Shown: positions 11,663 to 45,008 of the stretch, one piece after another
Layout: every line of letters begins with the position of its first letter
Position numbering within the stretch: the stretch's first letter is position 1
NCBI GenBank assembly: GCA_035273585.1
Contig: DATEOX010000746.1
Span: forward strand, 1 to 57,796
DNA: 57,796 bases
Reading direction: 5' to 3'
Source: Thermoanaerobaculia bacterium
GTDB taxonomy: Bacteria > Acidobacteriota > Thermoanaerobaculia > Gp7-AA8
Position numbers and translations under genes: made by a program
The notes under the pieces: generated by a model
Told to the model about the DNA's origin: nothing
The model's input: only the letters and a program-made list of their open reading frames with translations
The model's database searches: none

Positions 11663-11971
11663 TGATCGCTCCTGGTTTTCAACCGGACGCGATCGTCAGG
11701 CGCGGTCAGTCGTAGATCTTGAGACGGGAGACAACTTCGGTCCTGCAAGTACTGAGCCGTGCGGGGAAGGGCTTCGCTTTCACGCTTCGTTGTACGACCG
11801 CGATCCGGCTCGCAGTCGCGGCATTCCGCAGAGACAACGCGTCACGATTCGGAGCGGCGCCGGAACTGACGAATTTATGCCGCAGGTGAGCAGTCGGAGG
11901 CGTAAGATCCAACCACCCTCCGGGTCCTCCCGCAGCTTTGCGGTTGAAGACCTGCAGGTTCCGGAGGCTGG

Positions 11972-13443: not shown

Positions 13444-13451
13444 TGCGCGGG

Positions 13452-14648
13452 CTAGGTCGCGCCGTGAGCGACGTTCGCCAGCGGCAGCGACACGACGAAC
13501 TCCGACCCTTTGCCCGGACCTTCGCTGAACGCTTCAATCGTCCCGCCGTGACTCTCGACGAGATGCCGAACGATCGCCAGACCCAGACCCAGACCGCGCT
13601 GTGGCGTGTCGCGCGTTGAGTTCTCCTGACGATACCGCTCGAATACGTGCGGTAACAGGTCGCTCGTCATGCCGCGGCCGGTGTCACGCACGCAAATCTC
13701 TGCTGACGCGTCGGTGCGACGCAACTCGACGTGGACTGAACCCCCGCGCGGCGTGAATTTGATCGAGTTGGACAGCAGGTTCCAGCCGACCTGCTGGAGA
13801 CGAACCTCATCCGCAAAGACGAAGATTGGCTCCGCTGGAAGATCGGCCGTCAGATCGATTCCCTCCAGCTCCGACACGGCCCGAAAGGTAGCGACGACGT
13901 TGTTCACGATCGGGCTCAGTTCGACCAGCTCCTGCGCGATCATCGCCTTGCCCGCGATGATGCGCGACACATCCATCAGTCTTCGATGATGTGGGCCTGC
14001 ACCTTCGTGCTCGCCTCGATCATTGCCAATGCCTCGGCCGCCTCGGTGGCGTCGAGTTCCGCAGTTCTCAGGATCGCCACCCATCCACGGATCGCGGTCA
14101 TCGGAGAGCGTAACTCGTGCGCGAGCGTCGCCAAAAACTCGTCCTTCGCGCGATCCGCCGCCTCGTGCGCGCGCGCGATCTGCACCGCCGAGTCGGCCAG
14201 CTCATCGAGGAGGCGCTTGACCTGGTACTGCCGACGACGGCTGCGCAGAGCCGCTTCCGCCGCGCTGATGAACGTAGCGAGTCCGACCGGGCGTTCGAGA
14301 ATCAGAACCTGCACGCGTTCGCCGAGGATCTGCTTTACCTGCGCCGCTTCCTCTTCGCCGCCACTACCCAGCAGCAGAACCGGGATCTCCGACCACGGCT
14401 CCTGTGCATCGCAGAGTTCTCTCAGCGACGTGCAGCAGTCAGGGTCGTTCAACGCCTCGGAAGCGATGAGCACCATCCCAGCGCCTTTCTGCCACCTCGG
14501 CAGCCAAGGCTGAGGTGTCGTCCACGGCGACCACGACGAAGCCGTGGCCGCCGAGAGTTTGCGCGATCAGCGGCGCGTCGTCGCCCGTAGGCGCGCGTAC
14601 GAGAATGCGTTCGGTCAACGCACGGCCGGCGGTCCGTTGCTCATCCAT
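13452..14648 (-). pseudogene. Histidine kinase with receiver-like N-terminus, split by two frameshifts (about 13980 and about 14480)
   Basis: Three collinear pieces in three frames: MDEQ...ILVRAPTGDD (REC-like); H-box AHELRSPMTAIRGW; DTGRGM and GLGLGLAIV HATPase. HIIED|LMDVSRIIAGK needs one extra base. Confidence 0.75.
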
Positions 14649-15346: not shown

Positions 15347-15447
15347 TTGTTAATCCGGTGGTCGCTCGTTCGAGTCCAGCCGCCACAGCGAATTTCCTTT
15401 CAGAGACTTAGCAGAGATCCGCAGCGTCCGATCGAATGGATGGGCGA
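15347..15447 (+). repeat. Direct repeat copy B: partial tRNA-Asn (anticodon loop to 3' end, T-stem mismatch, no CCA) plus downstream flank; att-like
   Basis: 96/101 identity with 7539-7639. No matching tRNA 5' half upstream (ggagatgccag instead of the anticodon stem). Confidence 0.9.
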
Positions 15448-15584
15448 TGAGTGACGTCGAACGGCTGGGTCAACCTACCAAACCGCCGCGCCGAACCGAG
15501 AGTGAACTGGAGCGATTCTCCTGTCGGAGCTACGGCCGGTACAACGCGTCCGCCGCCAGCGGCAGACGCATGGGAGATCCTCCG

Positions 15585-16020
15585 ATGAAAGGCCGGATTC
15601 CAGGTTTCAGCTACAACCCCAAGAAGCACGTCGCTCACTTCTCACTGTACTTCCCGAGACCAACGGCAAGGTACGTCGCGAAAAGACGGCGCACGCGGAA
15701 TCGCGCGAAGAGGCCATCCGGTTGTGGCAGGCCTTCCGCGACGAGATCAGCGGTAAGCCGCCCGAGCCCCAAGCCCGCCGCACAACCCAAGGCGATGACG
15801 TTCCGAACATTTGTCACTGAGTACCTGCAGAAGATCTGCGCACGACGCGCGGAGAAGACGCTCGCCATCTATCGCACAATCGCCACCACAAGCCTCATTC
15901 CGTACTTCGGCGAGAAGCCTCTCGACAGCATTCGCTCATGCGACGTCGAGGACTTCATGGCCTCGATGCTCACCGAGTGCAGTCCCGCGTACGTCAACAA
16001 CTGCGTCCGCATGGCGATCG
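15585..16020 (+). pseudogene. Tyrosine-recombinase (phage integrase) remnant: N-terminal arm and core-binding region only, frameshifted, catalytic domain deleted
   Basis: MKGRIPGFSYNPKKHVAHFSLYFP | ETNGKVRREKTAHAESREEAIRLWQAFRDEI (other frame) | TFRTFVTEYLQKICARRAEKTLAIYRTIATTSLIPYFGEKPLDSIRSCDVEDFM (SAM-like core-binding). No R..HxxR..Y catalytic region follows. Confidence 0.6.
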
Positions 16021-16029
16021 CCGGGAGCG

Positions 16030-16377
16030 GCAGCGAGGTGCAGGTGGCCGACGCGCGGGAGTTCTTTCGCAGTCTCGCCGTCTTCATCGCGCCGCTGTTT
16101 GCGGGCGGCGGGATGCACATCAAGGTCCTCGAGGCGATGTCCCTCGGCACGCCGATCGTCGCAACCCCCCTCGACGCGGGCGGCATCGACGCGACCCACG
16201 AACACGACCTCCTCCTCGCCGAGGATGCGGAGTCGTTCGCGGATGCGATCGTGCGCCTGCTGCGCGATCGCGAAACGGGCCCGCCGCCTCGGCCGCAACG
16301 CGCGGGCGACCGTCGCGGCGCGCTACGATCGCGACACGCTCGCGCGCGATCTGCTCAGCTTCTACGAATCGCTGTGA
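16030..16377 (+). pseudogene. Family-1 glycosyltransferase C-terminal fragment (frameshift near 16265)
   Basis: FIAPLFAGGGMHIKVLEAMSLGTPIVATPLDAGGID...LLLAEDAESFADAIVRLL, then RRLGRNARATVAARYDRDTLARDLLSFYESL in another frame. Fused in frame to the integrase remnant in track ORF 15447-16415. Confidence 0.6.
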
Positions 16378-17138
16378 GCACAGCCCGTGCGACGCGCCCC
16401 CACGCCTTGCCGTAGTGCGCCGTCCCCCACGTCAGCAGATCGTCGCGGAGCCGCACCGGATCGTGCCGCCGGATATGGTCGGGAGCGATGGTGCGGCCAT
16501 GGCCGTGCGTCACGCGCGCCTCGTCGACGATCCGCACGCGCCACCCCGCGCCGCGCGCGCGCAGACAGAATTCGAGGTCCTGACAGTAGAAGCGGTAGCG
16601 CTCGTCGAGCGGCCCCGCATCGCGCCAGACCTCCGCGCGAAGCGCCATCGCCGCGCCGCTGACCCAATCCACGTCGCTCGTCGTCCGCGCTTTCCCTCGC
16701 CGAAAGAAGCGTGCGTACTGCCCGAGCCCCGTCACCGCCGCACGATCCAGGCGAGCGTCGGCGTCGCCCACCGCTCCACTGCGGCGTGCCGTCGTCATTG
16801 AGCAACCGCGCGCCCGCAACGCCGAGCGTAGAGTCGTTCGCGAATGCCTCCTCGAACGCGCGCAACGCCTCGCCGTCGACGATGGCATCGCTGTTGAGCA
16901 GCAGAATCAACCCGCCCCCCGCCTCCCTTATCCCCCGGTTCGCCGCCACCGCAAACCCGCCATTCGCCTCCATCCGAACGACCCGCACCCAAGGCACCTC
17001 CCGCGCCAGCAGCGCCGCCGTCCCATCGCTTGAGCCGTCATCGACGACGATTACCTCCACCGCCGCGCCAACCGCACGGCAGCATTGCAAGGTCATCGCA
17101 GCGGTGTTGAAGGTGGGGATGACGACGGAGAGGCTCAT
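16355..17138 (-). pseudogene. Family-2 glycosyltransferase, frameshift near 16770
   Basis: MSLSVVIPTFNTA...VVDDGSSDGT...LLNSDAIV (GT2 N-terminus), then VDWVSGAAMALRAEVW...YCQDLEFCLRARGAGWRV in the overlapping track ORF 16355-16888. Confidence 0.7.
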
Positions 17139-17318: not shown

Positions 17319-17858
17319 ATGCGAGTCCGATCGGTCGTTTTCGTGCTGTTGTTGTGGCTTTGCGTGCCCGCGCTGCTCGCGCAGGCCGATTCTGCCGGCG
17401 GTAGCGAAGGAGCGACCGCGGGCGAGACCGTGGAGACCTCCGACAGCCGCGGCGACGTGGCGCCGAGCACGCCCGTCGCACCGGTTCCGGGCTGGGTGCA
17501 CGTCGTCCGGCTTGCGGCGTTGGCGGGCCCGATCGCGTTTCTCGCCGCGGCGTGGCTCGCCGGCGGCATCGTCCACTACCGGCTCGTCCGCCGCGAGCAC
17601 GATCTCTTTCCGGCTGTGCGCGGCACGCGAATTCCGCAGACGATGCCGATGCTGATCAGCGCGGCGCTCTTCTTCGTGCCGGTGGCGCTTTTCGTCTTTT
17701 TCGAAATCCGCTCGCGCTGGGAGATCGCGCGGCACATCGGCGGCGTCGTCGACCAGTGGCATCCGGTGACGGCCCGCGCGTGGATGACGCTCTTCGGCTG
17801 TCTGGTGCTGGCGATCACTCCGTGGCTGTTCGCGCGCCGCGCCGACTCAGTGCGTTGA
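17319..17858 (+). CDS. Cluster gene 1: exported/membrane protein (signal peptide plus about 3 TM helices)
   Basis: GAGGAG precedes the ATG. MRVRSVVFVLLLWLCVPALLAQA signal, acidic linker, three hydrophobic segments. Stop lies 11 nt before the next start. Confidence 0.6.
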   Translation: MRVRSVVFVLLLWLCVPALLAQADSAGGSEGATAGETVETSDSRGDVAPSTPVAPVPGWVHVVRLAALAGPIAFLAAAWLAGGIVHYRLVRREHDLFPAVRGTRIPQTMPMLISAALFFVPVALFVFFEIRSRWEIARHIGGVVDQWHPVTARAWMTLFGCLVLAITPWLFARRADSVR

Positions 17859-17869
17859 GGAGAGGAACG

Positions 17870-20800
17870 ATGGCGAACTACCTGATTGCGGTGGGCGGTA
17901 CCGGGCAGCACGTCGCGCTCGCGGTCGCGGATTTCATCGCGCTGGCGCACGAGATCTTCCGCACGCCGGACGAATTTCCCGCCGTGAATCTGATCCTCGT
18001 CGACGCCGACCAGGCAGGCGGCGCCGATCAGGCCTCGGCGTGGCAGGAGGCGCGGGCGCGGCTCACGACGCTCGGTCTTTTCGGCGGCGACAGTTTCGAA
18101 TGCGTGCCGCTTCCCGTGCACTCGACGTTCGCCGACACGCGGAAGATGTACGAGTTCGTGAACCGTCTCGGCGCATCGTTCGGCCCGAATGCCGCCGACG
18201 CGCTGCTCCTGCACGAACAGCGCGAGGTCGACGTCACCAGCGGTTTCTACGCGCAGCCGCGCGTCGGCGCGATGATGGCCGACTGGCTCTTCGGCGAGGT
18301 CACGCGCGGCGAGGCCGTCAACCCGCAGCTTGCGCGCATCTTCCATCTCGCCGGTGATCCCGGAAACCGCATCGTCGTCGCCGGCTCGGGCGTCGGTGGC
18401 ACCGGAGCGGGGTTCGCGCCGGCGCTCCTCCGCCGCCTGTCGTCCGCGAACGGCGCCGGCGCCAGGCTGATGGCGCTGATGGCGACGGAGTGGTTCCGGC
18501 TCGCCGGCGCCTGCTCGAACCGCCTGTCGGAGTCGGTGCAGAAGACGAACGCGAACTCCGCGCTGTGGCACGCCGCTCACTCCGGTGCGGCCGCCGGCGT
18601 GCGGACCGTCCTGTTCGGACACCCGGACGTCTCGCGCGCGCCGGAGGAAGCGTGTCAGAACGGTGCGCTGCAGGCGCGCAAGGACAACCTGACCATTCCG
18701 TATTACGCCGCGGCGGCAGCGACGACGTTCTTCGCCGGCGACAACAGCGGCGGCACGCACATTCCGGCTGCGGCGTTCTCCGGCGATGCGCTCGCGCTGC
18801 CCGGCACGTTGCGGGTCACGCCGCGTCTCACGCTGAACGATCTGGTGCGGGCGAACGTCGAGGCGGTCGGCCGGCTGACGCTCGTCTCCGAGTACCTGCG
18901 CGAGCCATACCGCGGCTTCGTCATGCCGTTCCCGACGCTCACCGGCCGCATCGACGCGCTCGATGCGACCGAGCAGCCGCGCATAGACGCGGCGCTCGCC
19001 GCTAAGCGCGCGGCGCTCGCGAACCTCGGCAAGTCCGACGAAAAGCTGCCGGTCGCGCCGCGCCATCACCGCGGCCTTCCGACGCTGCGCGGCTGGATCC
19101 GCGGCAAGGTCGACGGTCCGTACGACCTCTGGAAAGACGCGCCGGTGCCGCAGCAGACGCCGGAGAGTCGCGCCGAGACCGTCGCCGCGGACGCCGACAG
19201 TGCCACGCTCCTCATCCGCAGGATCGGGTTCACCGGCCGCGTCGTCGGCGGCAATCTCGTCCCGGTGACGCAAGCGCAAGTCCGCGATCTGGTCACCGTC
19301 GACGACGTCGACGTTTCCAAAGTTCCGGCGTCCGACGCGGCCTCGCTGACCCTCGGCCACATCTTCCGCAGTTGGGAAGCGCGCGATGTCGAAGAGAAGC
19401 GGCAGATCGCCGACTCGCTCGTCGACGACGGCCGCGCGCGCCGCCCGGTGCTCGTCTGCGGCGACCACGGCGATCGTCCGCGTCAGTGGCTGAACCGCTG
19501 GCTGCTGCTAACGAACTTCCTCGTGGAAGGCCGCTTGACGGTGGAGCAACGCCCGCTGCCGTTCACCGCCGGGAAGGTTTTGTCGTATCGCGGCACGCCG
19601 GTCGGCGAGCTGTCGCGCGAATGGATTTGCCTGCCGCTGGTGAACGGCTACTGGAACGACGAAGCGACCGTCGCGGCGATGCACAGCGTCGCGTCGCGCC
19701 TCGAGACGCTGGCCACGTGGTGCCGCAACACCGCCGCGGTCGCGCGTTGCAAATCGTCGCGCCTGCCGGCGTGGCTGGACGTGCTCTTGTTCGCGACCGC
19801 CGACTTCGCCGGTGCGGCCAAGCAGCACACCGCGCAAAGTGTTCCCGTGCAGTGGACGGACGGCAGCACCGTGTCGCTCCCTCTGCCGAACGGCGTGAGC
19901 GGCGGGAACGACTGCGTCGCCGCTACCGCCGAGGCGTTCGGCGTGCTCGTCGAGCAGCCGCCGCCCGATGCGATGTCGCCGAAAGTGCGTGAGATCGTCG
20001 ACGAGATCTCGCGCATCGCGTTGACCGTGCCGAGCCTCGACGGCGGTGAAGCGAAAAGCGTGGTGTTCTCCGAGCTGCTGTCGCCCGCCGCGCGCGACTG
20101 CCTCTTCGGCGAGGTCATCGTCGACGTCGACGCACAGAAAGCCTGGCGTCTCACGTCGTCGTCGCGCATCGTCACGTCGGTCGCCGGTGAGGTGCTGACG
20201 GAGAACGTCGGCTGCTTCCGCACCGAGCAGCGGGCGAAGTGGCTCACGCCGGTCCGACACTCCTACATTCCGCTGCTGAAGTCCGGCGAGCTCGACGTGC
20301 GCACCGACGAACGGGGACAGGAGCTGCGCGTCACGCTGTCGCTGCACGGACGAACGTTCATGGAGTCGTACGCGGCGTCGCGCGTGCGGACGATCAATCC
20401 GCTCCTCCTGCACTGGCCGTCCTCGGTCGCCAGCGCGTCGGCGGATGTGACGGTGTTGTACGACGTCGCCGGCCACGGAGCAGGTCCGCAGACGCTCGAG
20501 GTGGTGATGCACGACGCCGCCTCGCGGTCCTGGAGCCGCTCACCGCAGCTGAGCCAGCGGCATTCGCTGCACTACGTCGCGACCGGATCGCGCATCCCGT
20601 ACGGCCTGACGTTCGAGCTCGAGAAGCGCGACGTCGGCTTCCTCAAGCTCGAGCGCAATCTTCGTCCTCTCGACGACGGCACGCAGCGCGTCGCCGTCGA
20701 CTTCGGCACATCGGCGACCGTCGTGGCGATCGAGGGCGGGCCGACTAATTCGCAGGTCGTCGACCTTCTGGAACCGCGCGCCGATGCGACCGCCGAGATA

Positions 20801-22156
20801 TGGAAGGGGAGCGAGCTGGCCGCGTTTCAGTGGTACGGCACGAGATCTGTCGACCCCGAGATCGTCACGAAGCGGCGCGCGCCGAGTGCGCTCGTCTACC
20901 TCGGCTCGCCCAACGACGAGCGTCCGAAACAGCCGCGGTACGGCGATCACGTGCTTCTCGACCAGGACGACTGGCGGTGGGAGAACAGCGATGCGTCACT
21001 GATGTTCGACATCAAGTGGACTCGCGACGCGGCGTACCGGCAGACGTATCTGCTTCATCACCTGGAGCAGTGCATCGCCGCGGCACTGAGCAAGGGGACA
21101 CTGCACAGCCGCAGCCTTTCCGTGACGTTCACGATGCCTCTGCGGCAGCGTGCGCGTGCGGAGGACTTCGTGCGCGAGATCGAGGCGGTTACAGCGGAGC
21201 TCGTCCGGCGGACCGGCGTCGCGATCGAGCCGCGCTTCGCGTACGAGTCCGAGGTCATCGCGCCGCCGGAAGCTCCGCGGGAGGACGTCGACGCGATCGT
21301 CGTCGCCGATCTCGGCGGCGGCACGCTCGACGTTTTCGCGAAGTACTTCGGCGCGGCGCGGCGGGCGGATTCGAACGAGGTCGTTTTCGATAGTGCGCGC
21401 ATCGGCGGCCATTCGCTCGTGGAGTGGCTGACCCGGGACATGCGCGGGGCGGAGCTTGCCGACTACCGGCGCCTCCTCCGTCTCGGGCAGGTCCGGCCGC
21501 TGGACGACAACTCGTCGCGCGTCGCGCGCGATTACTTCGACGTCGTGAAGCGCTTCACGGCCCTTTGGATGGATTCGGTCTGGCGGTACTGGACCGGCGA
21601 GGCGCGGCCGGGCCGGGTGCACGTGCAACTGCTCGGAATGGGGTGGTCGTTGCCTGGGTCCCCCGGCGATCAGATCGCGCTGCACCTCAGCGACATCGCG
21701 CGTGCCGTCGATTCGCCGCTGACGTACACGCGGTTCGAGGACGCCCTCGTGCGCGTCAATCCTAAAGAGCTTTTGGCGATGCGCGCGCTGCGCTGCCGCG
21801 GCGCGTCGAGCAGTGACTTCGTCAACTTCGCTCCAGCGTCGGTGAACGGAATTGAAGTGACGGTCGCGGGGCAGATCCGCCGCGACGACGAGGCGCTCGT
21901 CGGCCTCGGCGCCAACTCGCCCGTGGTGACGATCAGCCGCGCCGGCCTCGCGCGTCTCGGCAAGTTGACCGGCGCACGCGAGGAGATCGTCGCCGAAGTC
22001 CGCGACCGCACGCGCGGCTGTCTCACCTCGCGCTCGAACGGTGTCGACGTACACGATGGCGCCGTCATCGAAGGGACGAACATCTGGGTTGCCAGTCCGC
22101 TCGCGATTGCAGCGGAGATGTACACGCGGCAAGTGCTGCTGCACGTGCACGGGTGA
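17870..22156 (+). CDS. Cluster gene 2: 1428-aa fusion of an N-terminal FtsZ/tubulin-like GTPase domain and a C-terminal Hsp70/actin-like (ASKHA) ATPase domain
   Basis: Start MANYLIAVGGTGQHV follows GAGGAGAGG. Four collinear FtsZ-like motifs: IAVGGTGQHVA (FtsZ IGVGGGGGNAV), LILVDADQ (AVNTDAQ), SGFYAQPRVGAMM (GAGANPEVGRNA), VVAGSGVGGTGAGFAP (AAGMGGGTGTGAAP). ASKHA motifs: VAVDFGTSATVVA (20690-20728), VVADLGGGTLDV (21299-21334), IGGHSLVEWL, VQLLGMGWSLPG. Confidence 0.75.
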   Translation: MANYLIAVGGTGQHVALAVADFIALAHEIFRTPDEFPAVNLILVDADQAGGADQASAWQEARARLTTLGLFGGDSFECVPLPVHSTFADTRKMYEFVNRLGASFGPNAADALLLHEQREVDVTSGFYAQPRVGAMMADWLFGEVTRGEAVNPQLARIFHLAGDPGNRIVVAGSGVGGTGAGFAPALLRRLSSANGAGARLMALMATEWFRLAGACSNRLSESVQKTNANSALWHAAHSGAAAGVRTVLFGHPDVSRAPEEACQNGALQARKDNLTIPYYAAAAATTFFAGDNSGGTHIPAAAFSGDALALPGTLRVTPRLTLNDLVRANVEAVGRLTLVSEYLREPYRGFVMPFPTLTGRIDALDATEQPRIDAALAAKRAALANLGKSDEKLPVAPRHHRGLPTLRGWIRGKVDGPYDLWKDAPVPQQTPESRAETVAADADSATLLIRRIGFTGRVVGGNLVPVTQAQVRDLVTVDDVDVSKVPASDAASLTLGHIFRSWEARDVEEKRQIADSLVDDGRARRPVLVCGDHGDRPRQWLNRWLLLTNFLVEGRLTVEQRPLPFTAGKVLSYRGTPVGELSREWICLPLVNGYWNDEATVAAMHSVASRLETLATWCRNTAAVARCKSSRLPAWLDVLLFATADFAGAAKQHTAQSVPVQWTDGSTVSLPLPNGVSGGNDCVAATAEAFGVLVEQPPPDAMSPKVREIVDEISRIALTVPSLDGGEAKSVVFSELLSPAARDCLFGEVIVDVDAQKAWRLTSSSRIVTSVAGEVLTENVGCFRTEQRAKWLTPVRHSYIPLLKSGELDVRTDERGQELRVTLSLHGRTFMESYAASRVRTINPLLLHWPSSVASASADVTVLYDVAGHGAGPQTLEVVMHDAASRSWSRSPQLSQRHSLHYVATGSRIPYGLTFELEKRDVGFLKLERNLRPLDDGTQRVAVDFGTSATVVAIEGGPTNSQVVDLLEPRADATAEIWKGSELAAFQWYGTRSVDPEIVTKRRAPSALVYLGSPNDERPKQPRYGDHVLLDQDDWRWENSDASLMFDIKWTRDAAYRQTYLLHHLEQCIAAALSKGTLHSRSLSVTFTMPLRQRARAEDFVREIEAVTAELVRRTGVAIEPRFAYESEVIAPPEAPREDVDAIVVADLGGGTLDVFAKYFGAARRADSNEVVFDSARIGGHSLVEWLTRDMRGAELADYRRLLRLGQVRPLDDNSSRVARDYFDVVKRFTALWMDSVWRYWTGEARPGRVHVQLLGMGWSLPGSPGDQIALHLSDIARAVDSPLTYTRFEDALVRVNPKELLAMRALRCRGASSSDFVNFAPASVNGIEVTVAGQIRRDDEALVGLGANSPVVTISRAGLARLGKLTGAREEIVAEVRDRTRGCLTSRSNGVDVHDGAVIEGTNIWVASPLAIAAEMYTRQVLLHVHG

Positions 22157-22998
22157 TCGCGATGACGAGATCACCACTGCTCGCGCTGCTGTTCCTGCTC
22201 ACGTTCGCCGTGTCGTTCGCCGATGGCGCGCCGAGCCTGAAACCGCCGGCACCCGCGGCGCGAGAAGCCGCGTACGCGCCGGCCCCTGCCGCGCCGTCGG
22301 TCGCCGCCATCCCGTGGCAACTGACCGTCGGCTCGCTGGTGAACGCGTTGCTCATCGTCCTCGTGATCGTCGGTCTCGTTCTGCAGCTGCGTAGCGCGGA
22401 GCGGCGGTTGGTCGCGACGCTGAGATACCAGGACCGCGACGCTGCAGAACGCGAAAAACGGCAGCAGACCGACCTGCAGCACTGGAAGACGGAGCTGCGC
22501 AAGGAAATCGAATCGCTGCATGCGGCGCTCGCGCAGATTCCGGCGGACACCGAGCGGCTGATCGCGTCGAAGTTGCCGAAACAGCAGCAGACGCCGGCGC
22601 AAGCGGCGTCGTCGCGGCTGGCGTCCGCGGTGCTCGACGTTCGCGATGAGCGGCGTGGCGAGGATGGGCTCGCGCAGTTGCTGGTCGCCGCGAACCGCAT
22701 CGTCCAGGAGAGCTCGATGACGCTGGAGACGTTCCGCGAACGGATGGCGGGCGTGTCGTCGCGTGTGTTGCCGTACGGGCAGGTCGTGGCCGATGCGCCC
22801 GTCGCGTTCATCGTCGAGCACGGCGGGTCGGCGTACGCGGTGCCGAACGTCGTGAAGCCGACGCGGTTTCCAAACGACTGGTTCAACCGCGCCGACTTCG
22901 GCGTGAACGACGAGATCCGCCGCGTTGTCTCGCTGCCCAGACTACGGCGACGCGGTGATGGGTTCGACGTCGTGGAGCGGGGAGTATTCGAGCGATGA
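22153..22998 (+). CDS. Cluster gene 3: membrane protein with signal peptide/TM, coiled coil and C-terminal globular domain
   Basis: GTG overlaps the gene 2 stop (GTGA). LLALLFLLTFAVSFADG; TM LVNALLIVLVIVGLVLQL; heptad-like charged region. No recognised family. Confidence 0.6.
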   Translation: MIAMTRSPLLALLFLLTFAVSFADGAPSLKPPAPAAREAAYAPAPAAPSVAAIPWQLTVGSLVNALLIVLVIVGLVLQLRSAERRLVATLRYQDRDAAEREKRQQTDLQHWKTELRKEIESLHAALAQIPADTERLIASKLPKQQQTPAQAASSRLASAVLDVRDERRGEDGLAQLLVAANRIVQESSMTLETFRERMAGVSSRVLPYGQVVADAPVAFIVEHGGSAYAVPNVVKPTRFPNDWFNRADFGVNDEIRRVVSLPRLRRRGDGFDVVERGVFER

Positions 22999-24389
22999 GC
23001 GTGCTCTCGCTGCAGTCTGCGACGCACGCTCGCGCCCGCCGGACGTTCTGGGAGCCGTGGGCGGCGCTCGCCGTCGCCGGGGCGCTTTACTTGCGCGCGG
23101 CCGGCGCGCAGTGGGGCGGCGTCGTCGCACTCGGCGTCGAACTGCTCCTCGCCGTCGTCATGCGAGCGCGATTGCTCCGACGCGCGGAGGAGGAGATCGA
23201 ATGGCTCGATGAGCACCTTCCGCGGGAGCTGGCCATCGGCGACGCCGATCGCCTGATCGGCAGCGCCGCGGAACGGGTGGAGGGGATGTTCGGCACCGCC
23301 TCGAGCACCGTCCTCGCGACCGGCATGGCGGCGTCGGCGTTCCTCCTCTTGTTCTACGCCGGTGCGGGGGTCACGGGCGGAATCGTCGCCGTCGCACCGA
23401 AGGCGTTTGTCGCGACTGGTTACGCCATCCTCTGCGCGCTGGCGTTCACGCGCGACGCGCATCACCTCATCGCCGGCACGATCGAGCCGCTGCGCCGCAG
23501 GAAGCTCGACGAAGCGGGCCGCAACGGCGGCATCGTCAGCGTCGCCGTTGCACCGCCCGCCGAGCCGCCGGTGGCGTCGAAATTCGAAGACTTGATCTCG
23601 CAGCTCATCTCCATGCAGATCGCGCATCTGCGGGAGCTGAACGAGACCAACCGCCTTCTCTCCGCCTCCGCGTCGGAGCGCATCGACGAGGACTCCGGCG
23701 CCGTCCGCGTCAAGCTGTCGAAGGGGCTGACGGAGTTTCGGAAAGGCGTCGAGCGACTCGGTGAAACCGTCGAGTCGCTGAACGGCAGGCTCGACGCGCT
23801 GACGACCGACGAATCGGCGCTCTTCGAGCACCATCGCCGCGAGCTCGTCGCCGAGATCGCACAGCTGCCGCAGCAGGTCGCCGACCGCGCCGCCGGCATG
23901 ATGAGCGGATCGATCGCGCAGGTTGAAGAGCGCGTGCGGCAAGCGCTGCAGACCGTACATGAGGATGAAAACCGCCGCGCGCGCGACTACCTCACGAACG
24001 AGTTCGCGAAAATGCGCGACCAGTTCGAGCTGACGGAGCGTTCCGTGTCGGCGATCGCGACGCGGTTCAACGTCGTCGTCGGATCGCTCGACGAGCTCGC
24101 ATCGGCATTCGACCGGAGCGCGAAATCGGTCGTCACCAGCGCCGCCGACTTCACGCGTGAGGCCGAGTCGCTTGCGACGTCCGTTACCACCGCGCTCGGC
24201 CAGCTCGAGGACGCCGGTGCGACGAAGGCGTCGCTGCTCGCGCCGTTGACCGAAGCCGCGACGGCGGTGCGGAAAGCGTCATCCGTGGTCGCCACCGACA
24301 TGCGCAAAGTCGCCGCCGAACGCGAGCGCCTCGGGCGGGTGCGGCTCAAGATCCTCGAGCTGCTCCCGAATCAGCAGGGCAACTCATGA
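22995..24389 (+). CDS. Cluster gene 4: MotA/ExbB/TolQ-like channel subunit with about 300-aa C-terminal helical tail (ZorA-like architecture)
   Basis: ATGA overlap on both sides. Four hydrophobic helices. GMFGT (23283-23297; ExbB GLFGT) and VAPKAFVATG (23391-23420; ExbB VAPGIAEALLAT) are collinear. The remaining residues are helical and low in proline. Family call rests on weak motif similarity. Confidence 0.55.
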   Translation: MSVLSLQSATHARARRTFWEPWAALAVAGALYLRAAGAQWGGVVALGVELLLAVVMRARLLRRAEEEIEWLDEHLPRELAIGDADRLIGSAAERVEGMFGTASSTVLATGMAASAFLLLFYAGAGVTGGIVAVAPKAFVATGYAILCALAFTRDAHHLIAGTIEPLRRRKLDEAGRNGGIVSVAVAPPAEPPVASKFEDLISQLISMQIAHLRELNETNRLLSASASERIDEDSGAVRVKLSKGLTEFRKGVERLGETVESLNGRLDALTTDESALFEHHRRELVAEIAQLPQQVADRAAGMMSGSIAQVEERVRQALQTVHEDENRRARDYLTNEFAKMRDQFELTERSVSAIATRFNVVVGSLDELASAFDRSAKSVVTSAADFTREAESLATSVTTALGQLEDAGATKASLLAPLTEAATAVRKASSVVATDMRKVAAERERLGRVRLKILELLPNQQGNS

Positions 24390-25090
24390 TCGGGCGCGGC
24401 GTCAACTACTGGATCTCGTGGGCCGATCTCACGTTCATGCTCTTCATCGCCGGCCTTGCCACCGTGGCGATCAGCGAGGAGCATCGCGGCGACGCGGAGC
24501 GGCAGCTCGACGCCGCCCGGGTCGAGATCGCCCGGATGCGCAGGACGATGAATCCCTGCGCGAACGCGGAGTCCTTTCTGAACGGCTTCTCGGCGTGCGT
24601 CGCGCGGACCACCGGGCGCCGGCAGGCGCAGCGCAGCGGCTGTTTCGTCACCGTCGGCGAGGACGTAATCCGCTTCGCGAACGGCAAGGCCGTGCCGATC
24701 GACCCGGCGTCGGCGGATTCGGTGGCGGGCTGTCTTTACAACAATGCGCTGCAGTTCGCGGCGGCGGATCCCGGCGCGTTCGACGCGATCACCATCAACG
24801 TTGACGGACACACCGATTGCGTCGGCGATGCGAGCGACAACCAGGCGCTCGGCGCCGACCGTGCGCTGAGCGTCTACTCGCGCGTGCTGGCGCGCGCCGA
24901 GGATGACAGGAGCTGGACGACCGCCGACGCCAAGCGTGGATTCCTGAGCCGCATCGCCGTCCGCTCGTTCGGCGAGACCCGGCCGGTGGAACGGTCGCGG
25001 TGCACGACCGCGACCGGGTGGGCGGATGACCGGCGGGTCGTCGTCTCCGTGCAACTCGCGACCGAGCGCGCGAGGGACGGCCGCTCGTGA
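24386..25090 (+). CDS. Cluster gene 5: MotB-like stator/anchor protein (TM Asp plus OmpA-like peptidoglycan-binding domain)
   Basis: YWISWADLTFMLFIAGL parallels MotB WKIAYADFMTAMMAFF (Asp codon 24425-24427). NVDGHTDCVGDASDNQALGADRALSVYSRVL is the OmpA/MotB C-terminal signature (24797-24889). Confidence 0.8.
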   Translation: MIGRGVNYWISWADLTFMLFIAGLATVAISEEHRGDAERQLDAARVEIARMRRTMNPCANAESFLNGFSACVARTTGRRQAQRSGCFVTVGEDVIRFANGKAVPIDPASADSVAGCLYNNALQFAAADPGAFDAITINVDGHTDCVGDASDNQALGADRALSVYSRVLARAEDDRSWTTADAKRGFLSRIAVRSFGETRPVERSRCTTATGWADDRRVVVSVQLATERARDGRS

Positions 25091-25100
25091 GGAGAACCGC

Positions 25101-25280
25101 GTGATCTCGATCCTGTTGATGGTGTCGGTCGCCGTGCTCCTCGCTGTCGTGCTCGTGCTGGCGCGCCGCACCGGTCAGCGGCAGACGCGGCTCGAGCTCG
25201 AAAACCGCGCGATGCAGGTCGAGCTCGATCGCCATCGCGACGTCGCGCATTCAATTCTGCGGGAACTGCAGAGCCCATGA
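25101..25280 (+). CDS. Cluster gene 6: 59-aa single-TM protein
   Basis: GTG 7 nt after GAGGAG. ISILLMVSVAVLLAVVLVLA plus a charged helix. Stop overlaps the next ATG (ATGA). Confidence 0.45.
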   Translation: MISILLMVSVAVLLAVVLVLARRTGQRQTRLELENRAMQVELDRHRDVAHSILRELQSP

Positions 25281-26491
25281 AGAACGTCGTCGTCATCGCA
25301 GCTCTCGTGAGCTTCGCCGCATGCGATCCCGCCGGCGGCGAGCGACCGCTGATCGCGACTTGCAGGCCGGCCGTCACGGTGCTCTTTCCGGCGGCGAAAC
25401 CGGCTTCGGTGAAAGCGCCTTCCGCGCCGCAAGCCGGCGAGGTTGTCCAGGTGTACTGGGACGTTTCGCGCTCGATGCACGACTTTTCGGTGACCCGCCG
25501 CGCCGAGGAGTTGACGGACGATCTCGCGCCGGTCGTCGCGGCACTCGACAGCGGCGTCCTCCTGCAGGCGCACGCCGCGAGCATCGAGCACTACGGAGTC
25601 GGCGAAACGATCGTGCCGCTGCCGAGCGCGCGCGCCGCACTGCATCCCGCCGCGAAGCGTACCGCGCTGCATCTTGCGGCGGAGCAGATCGGCGGCGCAC
25701 TCGCGAACGGCGCCGCGCAGGCCGCACTCGTCGTTTCCGACATGGAGGTCGACGCGGTGCCGCGGACGTCCGCGGGCGATGCGACGGTCTGCGGCAACGT
25801 GCCGCTGCCGAGCACCGGCCAGGCAGGGCCGCTCTTCGGCCGCTGTTTCGAAAGCGCGGTGCTCGCATCCGGCGCTTCCCGCACGCGCGCCAGCCTGCTT
25901 GCGCACGTGTTCCGCAAACGCTCGCACGGCCGCGAGCTGTTCATCCTGCTGCTCGCGACCGATCGCGCGTTCGGGACGCGCATCTCGAACGAGATCGCCC
26001 GCCGCCTCGACTTTACGCGTCACGTCATCTTCGATTCCGGCTCCGTTTCGGCCGGCAACGTCGCCGGCTGCAGGATGGCGTTGTTTTCGGAGGACATGAA
26101 CCGCAGCCGCACAACGTGCGGCGTTAAGTGCTTCGATCCCGAGCTCGCCATTCAGGCGGAATGCGACGTTCGCCGCGACGCGATGAATGCCTGGATCGAG
26201 CCGGTCGGGCAGGGCGGCGACGGCGTCAGCTACGAGTCGGTACCGAAGAAGCGCGGCGACCGCGAGCAGCAGGCGGTCGTCCGCTTCGCGGTTCCGTGCA
26301 GCGCGCGGGCGGGGCGCTTCCAGGCGACGGTGCCGTATTCATGGCGGCAACAGACTCCGTGGTCCGCGGATCGCGCGGACCCGTTCGCGCAGCGCCCCAG
26401 CGTCCGCGATCTGTTCGACAGTCTCGCCGACGCCATCGTCCGCACCGTCGCGCCGCCACGACTGCGGATCGGGATCGATCTCGTCAAATGA
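25277..26491 (+). CDS. Cluster gene 7: vWA-like lipoprotein
   Basis: Lipobox-like VSFAAC. MIDAS-like VYWDVSRSM (DxSxS, 25460-25474) and ALVVSDMEVD. Cys-rich C-terminal part. Confidence 0.55.
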   Translation: MKNVVVIAALVSFAACDPAGGERPLIATCRPAVTVLFPAAKPASVKAPSAPQAGEVVQVYWDVSRSMHDFSVTRRAEELTDDLAPVVAALDSGVLLQAHAASIEHYGVGETIVPLPSARAALHPAAKRTALHLAAEQIGGALANGAAQAALVVSDMEVDAVPRTSAGDATVCGNVPLPSTGQAGPLFGRCFESAVLASGASRTRASLLAHVFRKRSHGRELFILLLATDRAFGTRISNEIARRLDFTRHVIFDSGSVSAGNVAGCRMALFSEDMNRSRTTCGVKCFDPELAIQAECDVRRDAMNAWIEPVGQGGDGVSYESVPKKRGDREQQAVVRFAVPCSARAGRFQATVPYSWRQQTPWSADRADPFAQRPSVRDLFDSLADAIVRTVAPPRLRIGIDLVK

Positions 26492-26607
26492 ACGGCGGCG
26501 CTTCTCCGGCAGTCGATCGCGCGATCAGTTGCGGACTCGCGGTCGCGATCGTCTGCATCGCGCTCGTTTTCGCCGCCGTACTGCTCGTCGGTGCGCTTGC
26601 TGACTGA
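26488..26607 (+). CDS. Cluster gene 8: 39-aa single-TM peptide
   Basis: ATGA overlap with gene 7. CGLAVAIVCIALVFAAVLLVGAL. Below the track length cutoff as an independent ORF. Confidence 0.4.
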   Translation: MNGGASPAVDRAISCGLAVAIVCIALVFAAVLLVGALAD

Positions 26608-26616
26608 TGGCTCGTC

Positions 26617-27087
26617 ATGACTCGTGAAACTGCCATCACCGGCGCGATTCTCGGCGAGCTTCTCCCCGAGCTGCAGTACGCCGCGCCTGTTCTCCTGGAG
26701 CGCTCCGATCGCGGCGATCCGCTCGTCGCGTCGACCTCGCCGGCCGACATCGGGTTCGAGACCGGTGCGGTCGATTCGGTGCTGCTCGAGCTCTTCAAGA
26801 CGCTCGTGCCGTACGTCAAGGCGGCGCTCGGGTGGGGCGTGCTGCGCGTCGTGCAGACGTGGCTGGCGTCGCAGCGCGAGTCGCGGCACCACGCGGAGCT
26901 GGTGGCGAGCCTCACCGCGCTCCTCGCGGAGAACGCGAAGCTGCGGCAAGCGTTCGAGAGCATCGCGGCCGTGCGGAGCCGCCGTGAGGGAGTGGCGGCG
27001 TCGACGGCGGACGTCGTCGATTCGATCGCCGACGCCGCCGAACGGATCGGCGACGCCGCCGATCCCGACGAACCGCAGCGCGACTGA
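26617..27087 (+). CDS. Cluster gene 9: hypothetical soluble helical protein
   Basis: 156-aa ORF, 9 nt after gene 8, GC-rich third positions. No recognised motif. Confidence 0.55.
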   Translation: MTRETAITGAILGELLPELQYAAPVLLERSDRGDPLVASTSPADIGFETGAVDSVLLELFKTLVPYVKAALGWGVLRVVQTWLASQRESRHHAELVASLTALLAENAKLRQAFESIAAVRSRREGVAASTADVVDSIADAAERIGDAADPDEPQRD

Positions 27088-27097
27088 AGACGCGGCA

Positions 27098-29851
27098 ATG
27101 AGCCCGATCGCCCTCGTCGCAGTCGTTCTGATCGGAGCCGTCGCGGCTTTCGACCGTCCGGCGCGAACGCCCGGAAATCTCACGCCCATTCAGCTGATCA
27201 GCGCCCTCGGCGCATGGGCGCTGATCCTCGCGAACGCCTCGGCCGTCGCGATCGCGATCCGGGACGGCTCCGGCGTTCTCCTTTGCACGGCGACCGGCAC
27301 GATCGCGATCGCGATCGTCTCGATGATTCGCCAGAGCACCGCCGCTCTTCCCGACCGGGACGCGCCGCAGTCGTTGACGCTCGTCGTCGATGATCTGAAG
27401 CGCCTGCTCGGCGGCGCACCGCGGCTCGGAATGGCGTCGCTCGACGCCGTGGTCGTTCATGGCCGCTGCCCCGGCGTCGGGGTGGCCGTGGCGCGGCAGG
27501 GACGGGTTGAAGTACGTGTCCGCCGCGACGTTGCGGAGTGGCTCGAGAGCCACCGCCGGCGCGGCGGCGCCGGGGCGGAGGTGGTGGCGAGCTTCGCGCG
27601 GTTCATCGTCCTGCACGAGGTCGCTCACGTCCTGAACGGCGATCACCGGACGTTTCGTTTCGTGCGCAGTGTGCTGATCGCGCAGCTGGTGTGGCTGCCC
27701 GGCGCCGCGGCGGCGGCCGCAGCCCGCGGGGTCGATTCGGGCGCATCCGGCACACCACTCGCGGTCGCCGCGTCAATCGCGTTTCTGCTCGTCGCGCAGA
27801 GCCTCGTGGCGCGGAAGTTCATCGCGGAGCGCGAGCGATGGGCGGACTGGCGAGCGATGCAGACGCTGCCGCCCGCCGATTCGGCGCGATTGCTGGAGCG
27901 GCGGGGGCGGCGGCGAAACGGCCGGAATCCGACCGAGCTCGAGAAGTTGATGAACGATCTCAAGGTCCACGCGTCGTCGGGCGGCGACGCCGGTCTGCTC
28001 GCGCGACTCATCGCGCTCGTGTGGCCGGACGGCGACGCCATTCATCAGCGGTCGGAGAGACTGGAAGGCGATCGCGCCGGCGGCGCACCGCGGCCGATGC
28101 TGTGGGCGGCGCTGACCGGCATGCAGTGCGGCTTCTTGTCGCTGTCTGCGTTGATGACCGTGATGCTCGCGATCCCTCCTTCGATGCATTTGCCGCCCGC
28201 CACCGTCGCGATGGCGCTCGTTACATGGATCACCGCGCCCGCCGTGACGTTCTGCGCCCTCCGCGTCGACCTCGCGCGCATGGCCGTACGCACGCTCGCG
28301 CTCACCGGCAGGCGTGTTCGCGTCGGCGGCGCCTTCTATCTGGCGTTCGCCGCCGCCGCGCTGACGTTGAACGGATTCCAGGCTCGCTTCGACGCCGCGC
28401 CGATGCCGGCCGTACTGCTGTTCGCGCTCCTGCTGATGGTCGCCATGCTGGTCGGTCTCTGTGTTTGGGCGTCGACCGTAGTCGGCATCCGCGACGGCGG
28501 CGGCGAGCTGCGGCCGACGCCGCGTGCGGCGTGGGTCGGCATGTTCCCGATTCTCGCCGGCATGGCGCTGGTGCAGGTTCCGTTGAGCGTGGCAGCCGCG
28601 CAATGGGTCGGCGCCGGTTCGTTTCGGAGCGGCAGGTGGGTTCCGGTGGTCCTTCTCTCGTTCGCGACCTTCGCGGTCAGCAGCGCGATGGCGAGGAGCA
28701 CGAGCCGGGTACTGCGCACGGCCGCTCCGATGGCGCTGCTCGACACGCCGCCGCCCGTCTACGGTTTCCGTGTTTTCTGGTGCAACTTCTATATCGATCT
28801 GTCAAAAACGACGCTGGCGCGCGCCGCGGCGGGCGCGATGGCGGTGCAACTCGCGACGGTGCCATTCTTCGTGCTCACAGCAGCCTTGATGATGCAGGCG
28901 GCGCTGCGCGGATTCGGCGCGGAACGCGCGATCACGGTCGCGTTCGTCGGCGCGTTCGGAGTGATGGCGCTCATCCTCGTCATTCCCGATCGCTACAGCG
29001 CGTACGGCGGCCCATCAGCGCGCCTGCTCGACACCGATCGGCTGCGGCTGTTCGAAGACCTTCTCGCCGCCGCGCGGGCCGCAAATCCGGCGGCGGCGGA
29101 CCGCCTGAACGCGTCATTCGCGCGGTGGATTCGCGACGACCGTTTTCCCGATGCGCTTCTCCCGCATCCGGAGGCCGTCTGGCCGCTCGCGCCGCTTCTC
29201 AGCCTCGTGCGTCTCGCGAGCGCGACCGGCGAGAGCGCCGCCGTCGGGCGCTGGCGCGGCCGGATCGAGCACGCTCTCCGGCAGATCGTCGTCGACGACG
29301 CAGTGGCGGTCGCACCGCGCCAGCCTCCGTCGCTTTACTGGACCGTGCTCGCCGCCACGATCATCGAGCAGGCAAACCTCCGCGCTGCGTTCCCGTTCGA
29401 GGCGATGCTCGACCGGATCGAGACGTTGGTCGAAGAGCGTTTGGAACGCGGCACCGCGAACCTCGTCGCCGATCTGGTCGCGGCGTCGCAGCTGCTGCGC
29501 CGCCACCGCCGCGCCAGCCCCGATCCGCAGCGCGTGCACGAGCTCGTGCGCACGTCATCGCTCGTGTCGCGTCCTCTGTTGCGCCAATCGCTGGCGGAGC
29601 TCGCCGAGCTCGCAGAGCTGACCGGCGATGCTGCGTTGCGCGAGCGGCTCGGGCCGATCGTCCGCTCGCGGATGTGGGAAGGCCTGCAACTGAATCCGCG
29701 GAAGGACGTGCTGCTGGTGCTCGACTGCTATCTCGCCGCCGCATCGCTCGGCCAACAGGACGGACGTCACGACGCCGCCGGCCTCGTCGTCGGCGAGCTC
29801 GCCGAGCGGATGTCGGAGGAGCTGAGTGCAGTCGTCGATCGCGTTCAGTAG
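27098..29851 (+). CDS. Cluster gene 10: polytopic membrane HExxH metalloprotease (M48/M56-like) with large C-terminal helical domain
   Basis: ATG at 27098, within the 1075-aa track ORF whose first part is an alternate frame of gene 9. LHEVAHVLNGDH (HExxH at 27614-27628). More than 10 hydrophobic segments. C-terminal 300 aa are Leu/Ala-rich and helical. Confidence 0.65.
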   Translation: MSPIALVAVVLIGAVAAFDRPARTPGNLTPIQLISALGAWALILANASAVAIAIRDGSGVLLCTATGTIAIAIVSMIRQSTAALPDRDAPQSLTLVVDDLKRLLGGAPRLGMASLDAVVVHGRCPGVGVAVARQGRVEVRVRRDVAEWLESHRRRGGAGAEVVASFARFIVLHEVAHVLNGDHRTFRFVRSVLIAQLVWLPGAAAAAAARGVDSGASGTPLAVAASIAFLLVAQSLVARKFIAERERWADWRAMQTLPPADSARLLERRGRRRNGRNPTELEKLMNDLKVHASSGGDAGLLARLIALVWPDGDAIHQRSERLEGDRAGGAPRPMLWAALTGMQCGFLSLSALMTVMLAIPPSMHLPPATVAMALVTWITAPAVTFCALRVDLARMAVRTLALTGRRVRVGGAFYLAFAAAALTLNGFQARFDAAPMPAVLLFALLLMVAMLVGLCVWASTVVGIRDGGGELRPTPRAAWVGMFPILAGMALVQVPLSVAAAQWVGAGSFRSGRWVPVVLLSFATFAVSSAMARSTSRVLRTAAPMALLDTPPPVYGFRVFWCNFYIDLSKTTLARAAAGAMAVQLATVPFFVLTAALMMQAALRGFGAERAITVAFVGAFGVMALILVIPDRYSAYGGPSARLLDTDRLRLFEDLLAAARAANPAAADRLNASFARWIRDDRFPDALLPHPEAVWPLAPLLSLVRLASATGESAAVGRWRGRIEHALRQIVVDDAVAVAPRQPPSLYWTVLAATIIEQANLRAAFPFEAMLDRIETLVEERLERGTANLVADLVAASQLLRRHRRASPDPQRVHELVRTSSLVSRPLLRQSLAELAELAELTGDAALRERLGPIVRSRMWEGLQLNPRKDVLLVLDCYLAAASLGQQDGRHDAAGLVVGELAERMSEELSAVVDRVQ

Positions 29852-44924: not shown

Positions 44925-45008
44925 ATGAACGGCGCAATGGATGATCCGGCTTTCCTAGACTGCGAGCCGGCCGGTCATGGCCGGCACGTCGATCGTTCCG
45001 AGGATGTC

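Follow-up and report, generated by a model that had tools for sequence, protein, structure and literature searches.

Ion-driven motors of the 5:2 type (MotAB, ExbBD, TolQR, GldLM and ZorAB) form a small set of complexes that convey membrane energy to other parts of the cell, and each new partner has therefore revealed new biology. Among these motors, the ZorA/ZorB gene pair of the Zorya systems, for which solved structures are available from E. coli (8QYD) and Shewanella sp. ANA-3 (8VVN), couples a channel-forming A subunit to an anchoring B subunit (PMC11946911, PMC11890865); signalling to the cytosolic partners requires the motor, its Asp and the tail, which in E. coli ZorA spans residues 223–729 (PMC11946911). 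In parallel, operons built around FtsZl1 (Pfam Tubulin_2) were found to hold vWA, GTPase and OmpA-family proteins and were suggested to act in membrane remodelling; their OmpA proteins were read simply as membrane-associated components (Makarova and Koonin 2010, PMC2875224). Here we describe a pair of genes, g4 and g5, that combines elements of both systems. It lies on a contig of 57,796 nucleotides (DATEOX010000746.1, hereafter the window) from a metagenome-assembled genome (MAG) of a soil acidobacterium, class Thermoanaerobaculia (Acidobacteriota). The pair belongs to a cassette of seven genes on the plus strand (g1, g2, g3, g4, g5, g5b and g6, positions 17319–26491; Table 1), and we favour, with moderate confidence, the reading that g4 and g5 form a stator-like ion channel of the MotAB/ExbBD/ZorAB type, acting as the energy-converting or sensing module of a conserved, envelope-spanning cassette.

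The closest precedent is found in Deinococcus, where two operons that combine FtsZl1 with a MotA/ExbB-like and an OmpA protein are given in Additional file 5 of Makarova and Koonin 2010 (PMC2875224). The trio is represented by Deinococcus DR_0538–DR_0536 and is present likewise on plasmid 2 of D. deserti (Deide_2p00780–00800). The tubulin-like protein of the D. deserti locus (1070 residues) matches Tubulin_2 with an E-value of 1.6e-69; the A protein (411 residues) has a GLLGTV motif and a helical tail, and matches PF01618 at E 0.06 and ZorA at E 1.6e-7 over both the transmembrane (TM) domain and the tail; the OmpA protein (200 residues) starts with NPYIAFSDLM. The cassette in the window repeats the order of a large tubulin-like protein, a tailed membrane protein (464 residues versus 411) and an OmpA protein (234 versus 200) with a MotB-like TM Asp. 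It also has additional membrane-associated genes, as FtsZl1 operons do, and a DxSxS motif in g6 recalls their vWA proteins. In contrast to its Deinococcus counterpart, g4 gives no MotA_ExbB or ZorA signal in the TM domain, and g2 differs from FtsZl1 in falling below the Pfam threshold for Tubulin_2 and in carrying an extra Hsp70-like C-terminal domain. The equivalence of g4 with the Deinococcus A protein (DR_0537/Deide_2p00790) is one of position and architecture only. Attempts to bridge the two groups through the Deinococcus proteins failed for g4, with neither pairwise nor profile similarity, and gave only a weak match for g5, in the OmpA part.

By sequence, g5 is a MotB/ZorB-type B subunit, with an OmpA-like domain that is stabilised by conserved cysteines. 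The protein starts with a cytoplasmic N-terminus of seven residues, followed by a TM helix (residues 8–29), a periplasmic helix, a Cys-rich linker with six conserved cysteines and an OmpA-like peptidoglycan-binding domain (residues 135–222). The stretch YWISWADLTFMLF begins at residue 8 and places Asp14, the predicted proton-relay residue, near the cytoplasmic end of the TM helix. The C-terminal domain contains the DGHTDCVGDASDNQALGADRA stretch with the OmpA signature GHTD...N..L..DRA and is recognised by Pfam OmpA (PF00691), whose cutoff of 27.2 bits it passes with a score of 27.7. Within the GHTD...R peptidoglycan-binding signature, D144 and R159 are invariant in the orthologues, and the six cysteines are conserved. 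The PADLOC ZorB model matches g5 at E 4.6e-9. Searched against the solved structures, a profile of 34 g5 orthologues finds 8vvn_B as its best match (E 1.2e-7, residues 7–221), the ZorB chain of an entry given in the Foldseek table as a type I ZorAB complex from Shewanella sp. ANA-3; many OmpA-like structures are matched as well, with TssL, YiaD, YfiB and Pal among the weaker ones. The TM helix by itself matches E. coli ZorB (8qyd_F, E 8.8e-5). Asp14 is invariant in the 34 orthologues, down to 40% identity, and in five more distant partners of g4-like genes (31–44% identity), where it lines up with D32 of E. coli MotB and with the AFSDLM stretch of Deinococcus. Thus g5 shares with MotB (PomB) the TM Asp, the OmpA-like domain and an adjacent, coupled A gene, and with ZorB, its best solved relative, the N-terminal TM Asp and a peptidoglycan-binding part rich in conserved cysteines; the periplasmic domain of ZorB also contains disulfides (PMC11946911). 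Both elements that an initial annotation of the window had proposed for g5, a MotB-like anchor with a proton-relay Asp and an OmpA-type domain, are therefore borne out; the refuting condition set there for g5, a TM Asp that varies among orthologues, does not hold.

The two genes are tightly linked. ATGA stop/start overlaps join g3 to g4 (22995–22998), g4 to g5 (24386–24389) and g5b to g6, and because of the overlap g4 is expected to be made together with g5 by translational coupling. The gene boundaries and the overlap reported initially are upheld, and the synteny is kept on independent contigs. A g5-like gene follows directly 3' of every g4-like gene examined, at 13 independent loci that include relatives of only ~25–35% identity. 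The search recovered 38 relatives of g4 at 62–70% identity, none with a Pfam domain, and 65 of g5; taken together, the relatives of the two proteins span 40–76% identity. The exact g4 protein is already on record as a hypothetical protein of the same organism. Five close loci in other Thermoanaerobaculia contain all seven genes in the same order with different flanks, and a cassette close to this form was found only in that class. Close g4 proteins occur in four of 185,579 GTDB species representatives, all of them MAGs of Thermoanaerobaculia/Acidobacteriota. In more distant cassettes, the order g2-like, g4-like, g5-like is kept; at two loci that are more distant still (L098 and L099), a g2-like gene is accompanied by a protein of 553–565 residues with a GIGGT/GLGGT motif and a ZorA-like tail, encoded upstream of a ZorB-like protein.

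The architecture of g4 is that of a tailed channel subunit. An AlphaFold model and hydrophobicity agree on four TM helices arranged in two hairpins (residues ~20–36, 41–57, 100–122 and 129–151), of which the first is marginal. Positive charges (Arg and Lys) sit on the predicted cytoplasmic segments, and the predicted topology is MotA-like, with both termini in the cytoplasm and very small loops on the periplasmic side. A short cytoplasmic helical insert (residues 58–99) separates TM2 from TM3, and a Pro/Ala linker of low model confidence (~178–195) leads to a tail of four helices (196–227, 234–290, 307–406 and 411–456). The mean predicted local distance difference test (pLDDT) score is 71 for the full-length model and 86 for residues 1–170. 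The four helices and long helical tail described initially are thus supported by the model; the length of the tail had been put at about 300 helical residues and is smaller, ~270 residues in total, of which ~250 are helical.

Several in-membrane polar positions are kept across the wide g4 family, namely E/Q49 in TM2 and S103, G110 and S114 in TM3, together with P135, K136, an Ala, a Phe, T141 and C147 in TM4; such a pattern is as expected for an ion path, judged from the alignment. The most conserved stretch of the family is VAPKAFVATG, which begins at residue 133 and is identical in 34 of 36 orthologues; its P-K/R-A-F..T core is retained in all distant relatives. It lies 31 residues after GMFGT, which begins at residue 97, and the initial annotation had taken the two stretches as mirrors of the ExbB/TolQ motifs. 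For GMFGT, the proposed equivalence with GLFGT was rejected as a coincidence of a single sequence, since it is found in one of the 36 orthologues and most have GMFAT. For VAPKAFVATG, the conservation is real, and hhalign pairs it with TolQ VAPGIAEALIAT only through a gap of three residues (P 0.087). The candidate equivalents of the channel motifs are GMAAS (residues 110–114) and P135/T141, both conserved.

Whether g4 descends from the known A subunits was addressed at the level of profiles and folds. Profile-to-profile comparisons with hhalign used a TolQ/ExbB reference alignment of 82 sequences (80 metagenomic TolQ plus E. coli TolQ and ExbB); the reference profiles are shallow (effective number of sequences about 4) and secondary structure was not included. 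A family alignment of 34 g4 sequences pairs g4 53–88 with TolQ 34–69 (P 0.022, not significant) and, collinear with it, g4 129–149 with TolQ 163–186 (P 0.087). The comparison with MotA alone gives P 0.74, and that with E. coli TolQ plus ExbB is also not significant. A bridge through the A proteins of L098 and L099 gives weak hints, with P 0.027 to g4 and P 0.009 to TolQ; it aligns g4 GMAAS with GLGGT of L099, and the latter with TolQ GLFGT. At the level of structure, Foldseek searches of the Protein Data Bank (PDB) with the full-length g4 model return ExbB at ranks 1–6, followed by TolQ, MotA and PomA (E 0.015–1, probability up to 0.82, TM-score <0.3), and with the N-terminal model ExbB and TolQ lead and ZorA (8vvn_C) stands at rank 13 (E 0.16–2, TM-score 0.26–0.38). 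The top ranks of these two independent searches are almost all A subunits of 5:2 motors, with probabilities of 0.6–0.8. The ranking of the models thus points toward stator A subunits, with no single test significant.

A considerable body of results weighs against the assignment of g4. Pfam gives no PF01618 match for g4 at E-values up to 1, nor for its distant relatives at E-values up to 0.1–0.5, and no model of Pfam, NCBIfam or PHROGs matches the TM domain. Searched against the sequences of all solved structures, the family profile finds no stator and only prefoldin-like coiled-coil noise; searched against 1.84 billion representative proteins, the TM-domain profile finds ten proteins, all of its own family and none of them a known stator or a carrier of a MotA_ExbB domain. 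All hhalign P-values are 0.009 or weaker and cover short stretches. No Foldseek match of the g4 models reaches E 1e-3, the best being 0.015, with TM-scores of 0.13–0.38, and long helical hairpins can resemble each other without shared ancestry. The canonical G-x-x-G-T is not conserved in g4, the spacing between the conserved Pro and Thr of TM4 is six residues versus nine in TolQ, the hydrophobicity of TM1 is weak, and the genes flanking the cassette (KaiC-like ATPase, histidine kinases, glycosyltransferases) give no functional clue. Of the two profile searches suggested with the initial annotation, the one with OmpA thus succeeded for g5 and the one with MotA_ExbB failed for g4; a significant profile match to g4 is lacking, and a significant fold match very nearly so. 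Homology of g4 to MotA/ExbB, as proposed at the outset, is therefore not demonstrated: either g4 belongs to the MotA/ExbB superfamily and has diverged very far, or it stands in functionally for such a protein. In either case g4 is probably the channel partner of g5, and an ion-conducting stator is the most likely reading of the pair.

As in MotA, which has four TM helices with both ends in the cytoplasm, the predicted TM helices of g4 number four. The stretch between TM2 and TM3 of MotA is its torque-generating domain; in g4 the corresponding segment has ~40 residues, much shorter than in E. coli MotA, and a long tail is present instead. The pair differs further from MotAB in the missing PF01618 match and in that the window holds no flagellar genes. 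Similarity to ExbB and TolQ, proteins with three TM helices, is seen in the leading Foldseek ranks of both g4 models and in the collinear hhalign match, none of it significant, and in the long TM helices that run on into the cytoplasm. However, g5 differs from ExbD and TolR in having an OmpA domain, and when all open reading frames (ORFs) of the window were compared with the TolQ/ExbB profile and with E. coli MotA, MotB, TolR, ExbD and TolA, no relative was found; nor was TonB present. This agrees with the initial statement that flagellar, Tol or Ton partner genes are not nearby.

The long cytoplasmic helical tail relates g4 to ZorA, whose tails are the nearest among the PADLOC models. Unlike ZorA, in which the TM helices number three and the cytoplasmic domain next to the membrane is larger, g4 has four predicted TM helices, a tail of ~270 residues rather than ~500 and a TM domain that no ZorA model matches. 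The PADLOC ZorA matches (best E 1.7e-5) are restricted to residues 198–445, and the NCBIfam ZorA model scores 13.5 bits (E 0.016) against a cutoff of 190. As evidence of homology the tail matches were rejected: for g4 and most of the relatives, models of JetC, LmuB or LeoBC respond together with those of ZorA, and the matches are therefore ascribed to coiled-coil resemblance. With PADLOC applied to g2, g3 and g6, none of ZorC, ZorD, ZorE, ZorF or ZorG was found in the cassette, whose partners are instead a tubulin-like/Hsp70-like giant, two or three small membrane proteins and a lipoprotein. The description of g4 and g5 as a ZorAB-like pair thus survives in architecture and in the match of g5 to ZorB, and does not extend to the g4 TM domain or to the Zorya partners; the Zorya-like label holds for architecture only.

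Two of the cassette partners are plausible recipients of a signal from the pair. The g3 protein begins with a signal peptide, after which a short periplasmic stretch of Pro and Ala, a single TM helix and a cytoplasmic coiled coil lead to a conserved C-terminal domain of ~115 residues; the g3 profile finds no relative among solved structures. At another locus (L094:40–2217), a g4-like protein of 725 residues (P0107) carries this domain at residues 599–724 (hhalign probability 95%, E 2e-8), fused to the end of the g4-like tail. Judged from sequence, this fusion is the best evidence that the g4 tail works on g3. Because the cassette is conserved while its flanks differ, and because of the fusion, the pair is linked to the cassette, in accord with the initial suggestion that it serves the neighbouring proteins. 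The large protein g2 combines two nucleotide-binding parts. Its N-terminus carries tubulin/FtsZ-like GTP-binding motifs, GGTGxH (residues 9–14) and GSGxGGTG (172–179), and its C-terminus the Hsp70/actin-like motifs DFGTS (944–948) and DLGGGTLD (1147–1154), all invariant in 21 relatives down to 22% identity. The family profile recovers the nucleotide-binding domain of DnaK/Hsp70 (E 9.3e-5), and in this alignment the two phosphate motifs are paired in the same order. No Pfam model recognises g2 itself; among the 21 relatives, sub-threshold matches are seen to Tubulin in 15 and to Tubulin_2 (PF13809) in 14, with a best E of 0.003. Against the Tubulin_2 protein of D. deserti, hhalign gives a weak alignment (P 0.07) that stays collinear across 211 columns. 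Relatives of g2 with 1430–1610 residues occur in similar cassettes, and a tblastn search of g2 against plasmids gave no match.

On this basis a working model can be outlined, in which stoichiometry, ion flow, movement and output would follow by analogy with the known motors. Several g4 subunits, five if the analogy holds, would surround a dimer of g5 TM helices; g5, anchored to peptidoglycan, would supply Asp14, and the g4 ring the walls of the channel. Protons from the periplasm would cross the g4/g5 interface through protonation and deprotonation of Asp14, and their passage would make the g4 ring rotate or change conformation relative to g5. The bundled g4 tail would then pass this change on to the cytoplasmic side, where the g3 C-terminal domain would receive it, and g2, in which a tubulin-like GTPase part and an Hsp70-like ATPase part are united, is a likely further target. 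The output could be remodelling of the envelope or membrane, as proposed for FtsZl1 operons, or sensing of envelope damage in the manner of Zorya.

The latter possibility leads to a different account of the biological role, compatible with a stator mechanism, in which the cassette is a new Zorya-like anti-phage system: g4 and g5 would sense envelope damage when phage DNA is injected, and the tail would recruit or activate a g2/g3 effector. The ZorAB-like architecture and the position of ZorB as closest solved relative of g5 fit this account, as do the PADLOC ZorA models being the best matches to the tails of g4, the L098 and L099 A proteins and P0109, the patchy distribution with flanks that vary between genomes, the GC content above that of the flanks and the integrase-domain fragment at the left edge. 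At one distant cassette, HepT/MNT and HicB-like toxin-antitoxin genes lie a few kilobases away (L096:18276–19128), the sole defence-island-like context seen. However, neither ZorC–ZorG nor a nuclease, protease, NADase or other known effector domain was detected with PADLOC, PHROGs, Pfam and NCBIfam; a search of the flanking genes of the window for defence-island context found none, and they are not defence genes; and the ZorA matches, confined to the tail and mostly mixed with JetC, LmuB or LeoBC, point to shared coiled-coil composition. We therefore regard an anti-phage role as rather unlikely.

Another account denies the motor altogether, and takes g5 as a mere tethered peptidoglycan anchor and g4 as an unrelated coiled-coil scaffold that fixes g2 and g3 to the envelope, with no ion flow or rotation and a structural role for the Asp. 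Every homology test of the g4 TM domain against MotA/ExbB is non-significant, as this account would have it; OmpA-like anchors serve in many non-motor systems, including those of the weaker g5 matches named above, and the view of FtsZl1-operon OmpA proteins taken by Makarova and Koonin (PMC2875224) points the same way. In contrast, the charged TM Asp lines up with MotB D32 and does not vary between 31% and 76% identity, which would be difficult to account for if it had no polar partner, and the g5 TM helix alone matches ZorB TM helices. Moreover, g4 keeps E49, S103, S114, K136 and T141 within the membrane across the wide family, and strict adjacency with translational coupling is typical of stator A/B pairs according to a 2025 survey of MotAB relatives (PMC12505986). 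A pure scaffold accordingly appears improbable. That the ORFs are chance frames with coincidental motifs is refuted: the GC-rich DNA does yield 143 ORFs of at least 150 residues, many of them spurious, but third-position GC (0.85–0.90) follows exactly the g4 and g5 frames, dozens of orthologues conserve length and synteny, and the N-terminal g4 model is confident.

If the stator reading holds, the cassette may be a new use of an ion-driven stator. What is new, as far as sequence comparison goes, is a candidate A-subunit family that has not been recognised and a set of new partners; the type of the B subunit is known. Since the channel candidate is not recognised by current profiles, surveys based on PF01618 would miss the g4 family. 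It is possible, as a more tentative extension, that g4 represents a new stator A family invisible to MotA_ExbB profiles, which together with g5 forms the ion-driven motor of a new envelope-spanning machine, coupled via g3 to g2, and thus a fifth functional class of 5:2-type motors beside flagellar rotation, Ton/Tol, gliding and Zorya defence. Conserved synteny and a domain fusion connect the pair with a protein in which tubulin-like and Hsp70/actin-like nucleotide-binding domains are combined, and if the reading is correct, the ‘membrane remodelling’ operons predicted in 2010 would be linked to stator mechanics, with a testable model of their role. Apart from the 2010 supplementary table, no paper was found in the literature that describes the cassette or links ZorAB-like pairs with tubulin-like proteins; in the parts consulted, the 2025 survey (PMC12505986) leaves Deinococcus unmentioned and names ‘Acidobacteria’ solely when listing phyla that have flagellar stators. 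A practical limit is the rarity of the cassette, whose close relatives come only from uncultured soil Thermoanaerobaculia.

The features of the cassette are collected in Table 1. Because GC-rich DNA (62–70% GC in the window) yields spurious ORFs on both strands, the real frames were chosen by third-position guanine-plus-cytosine (GC) content.

Table 1. Genes and sequence elements of the g1–g6 cassette (positions in the window)
Feature	Position	Strand	Description	Basis
g1	17319..17858	+	179 aa, membrane protein; first cassette gene	third-position GC frame, translation, hydrophobic segments
g2	17864..22156	+	1430 aa, cytoplasmic; tubulin-like N-terminus, Hsp70-like C-terminus	motifs, profile matches
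g3	22153..22998	+	bitopic membrane protein	translation, hydrophobic segments
g4	22995..24389	+	464 aa; proposed channel (A) subunit	ORF, model, hydrophobic segments
VAPKAFVATG of g4 (residues 133–142)	23391..23420	+	periplasmic start of TM4	
g5	24386..25090	+	234 aa; MotB/ZorB-type B subunit	OmpA domain, ZorB profile matches
Asp14 codon (GAT) of g5	24425..24427	+	predicted proton-relay residue in TM helix	
g5b	25101..25280	+	59 aa, single TM helix	sequence, conservation
g6	25277..26491	+	404 aa, predicted lipoprotein; last conserved cassette gene	
Terminator-like hairpin	26544–26562		3' of g6	

A signal-peptide-like start and about three hydrophobic segments characterise g1, which shows 53–71% identity across five loci and has no match in NCBIfam and PHROGs, the two collections searched for it. 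The small gene g5b, with a hydrophobic segment at residues 2–20, shows 52–64% identity in five loci and is called as a 59-residue gene at L001; lying between g5 and g6, it is easily missed in annotation. The lipoprotein g6 has a lipobox (...FAAC), an invariant VYWDVSxS stretch whose DxSxS resembles a metal ion-dependent adhesion site (MIDAS), and a later SD(M/L)E(L/I)D stretch (SDMELD in the window). It is conserved down to 25% identity (at L005), and at L096 a protein of similar length occupies the same position, matched by length and position alone. Judged by these motifs, g6 could be a very divergent vWA protein and so a counterpart of the vWA proteins in FtsZl1 operons; the assignment was not confirmed, as g6 has no match in Pfam or among solved structures. 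PADLOC gives no match better than E 0.02 for g2, g3 or g6, and nothing significant was found in these three proteins with PADLOC, PHROGs, Pfam and NCBIfam. The genes g7 and g8 (26617–29851), which follow the cassette, were rejected as members, being absent from all related loci; g8 (27098–29851) encodes a protein of 917 residues with many TM helices and an HEVAH (HExxH) metalloprotease-like motif, and has no Pfam match.

Upstream of the cassette, the window encodes a KaiC-like ATPase (12493–13443; Pfam E 3.6e-38), accompanied within 9599–14084 by a hybrid histidine kinase/response regulator and a second HATPase_c protein. The ORF at 15447–16415 is suggestive of a gene that was disrupted or fused, since it couples a phage-integrase N-terminal SAM-like domain (residues 118–174) with the C-terminal portion of a group 1 glycosyltransferase. 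The GC content climbs from 0.62–0.65 to 0.68–0.70 over ~16–30 kb, the cassette included, and the change at ~16 kb may mark an island boundary. About 20 kb downstream, a Pal-like OmpA lipoprotein with the lipobox IAAGC is encoded at 44808–45587.

Related loci elsewhere show further variation around the pair. Between the g5-like and g6-like genes of two distant cassettes lie a protein of ~210 residues with a weak Peptidase_M50B match (L005:9294–9923 and L096:11762–12400) and a protein of ~90 residues. At L099 (15225–17597), a canonical vWA protein (VWA_2, E 6e-5) is encoded together with a Pfam Tubulin_2 protein 3 kb downstream of the g2/g4/g5-like cassette, so that two tubulin-like systems stand next to each other. 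In another distant cassette, the gene after the g5-like one (L100:9803–10999) encodes a 398-residue protein with a FliN-type C-ring domain (PF01052, E 5.9e-8), a curious occurrence of a flagellar switch-type domain beside a stator-like pair.

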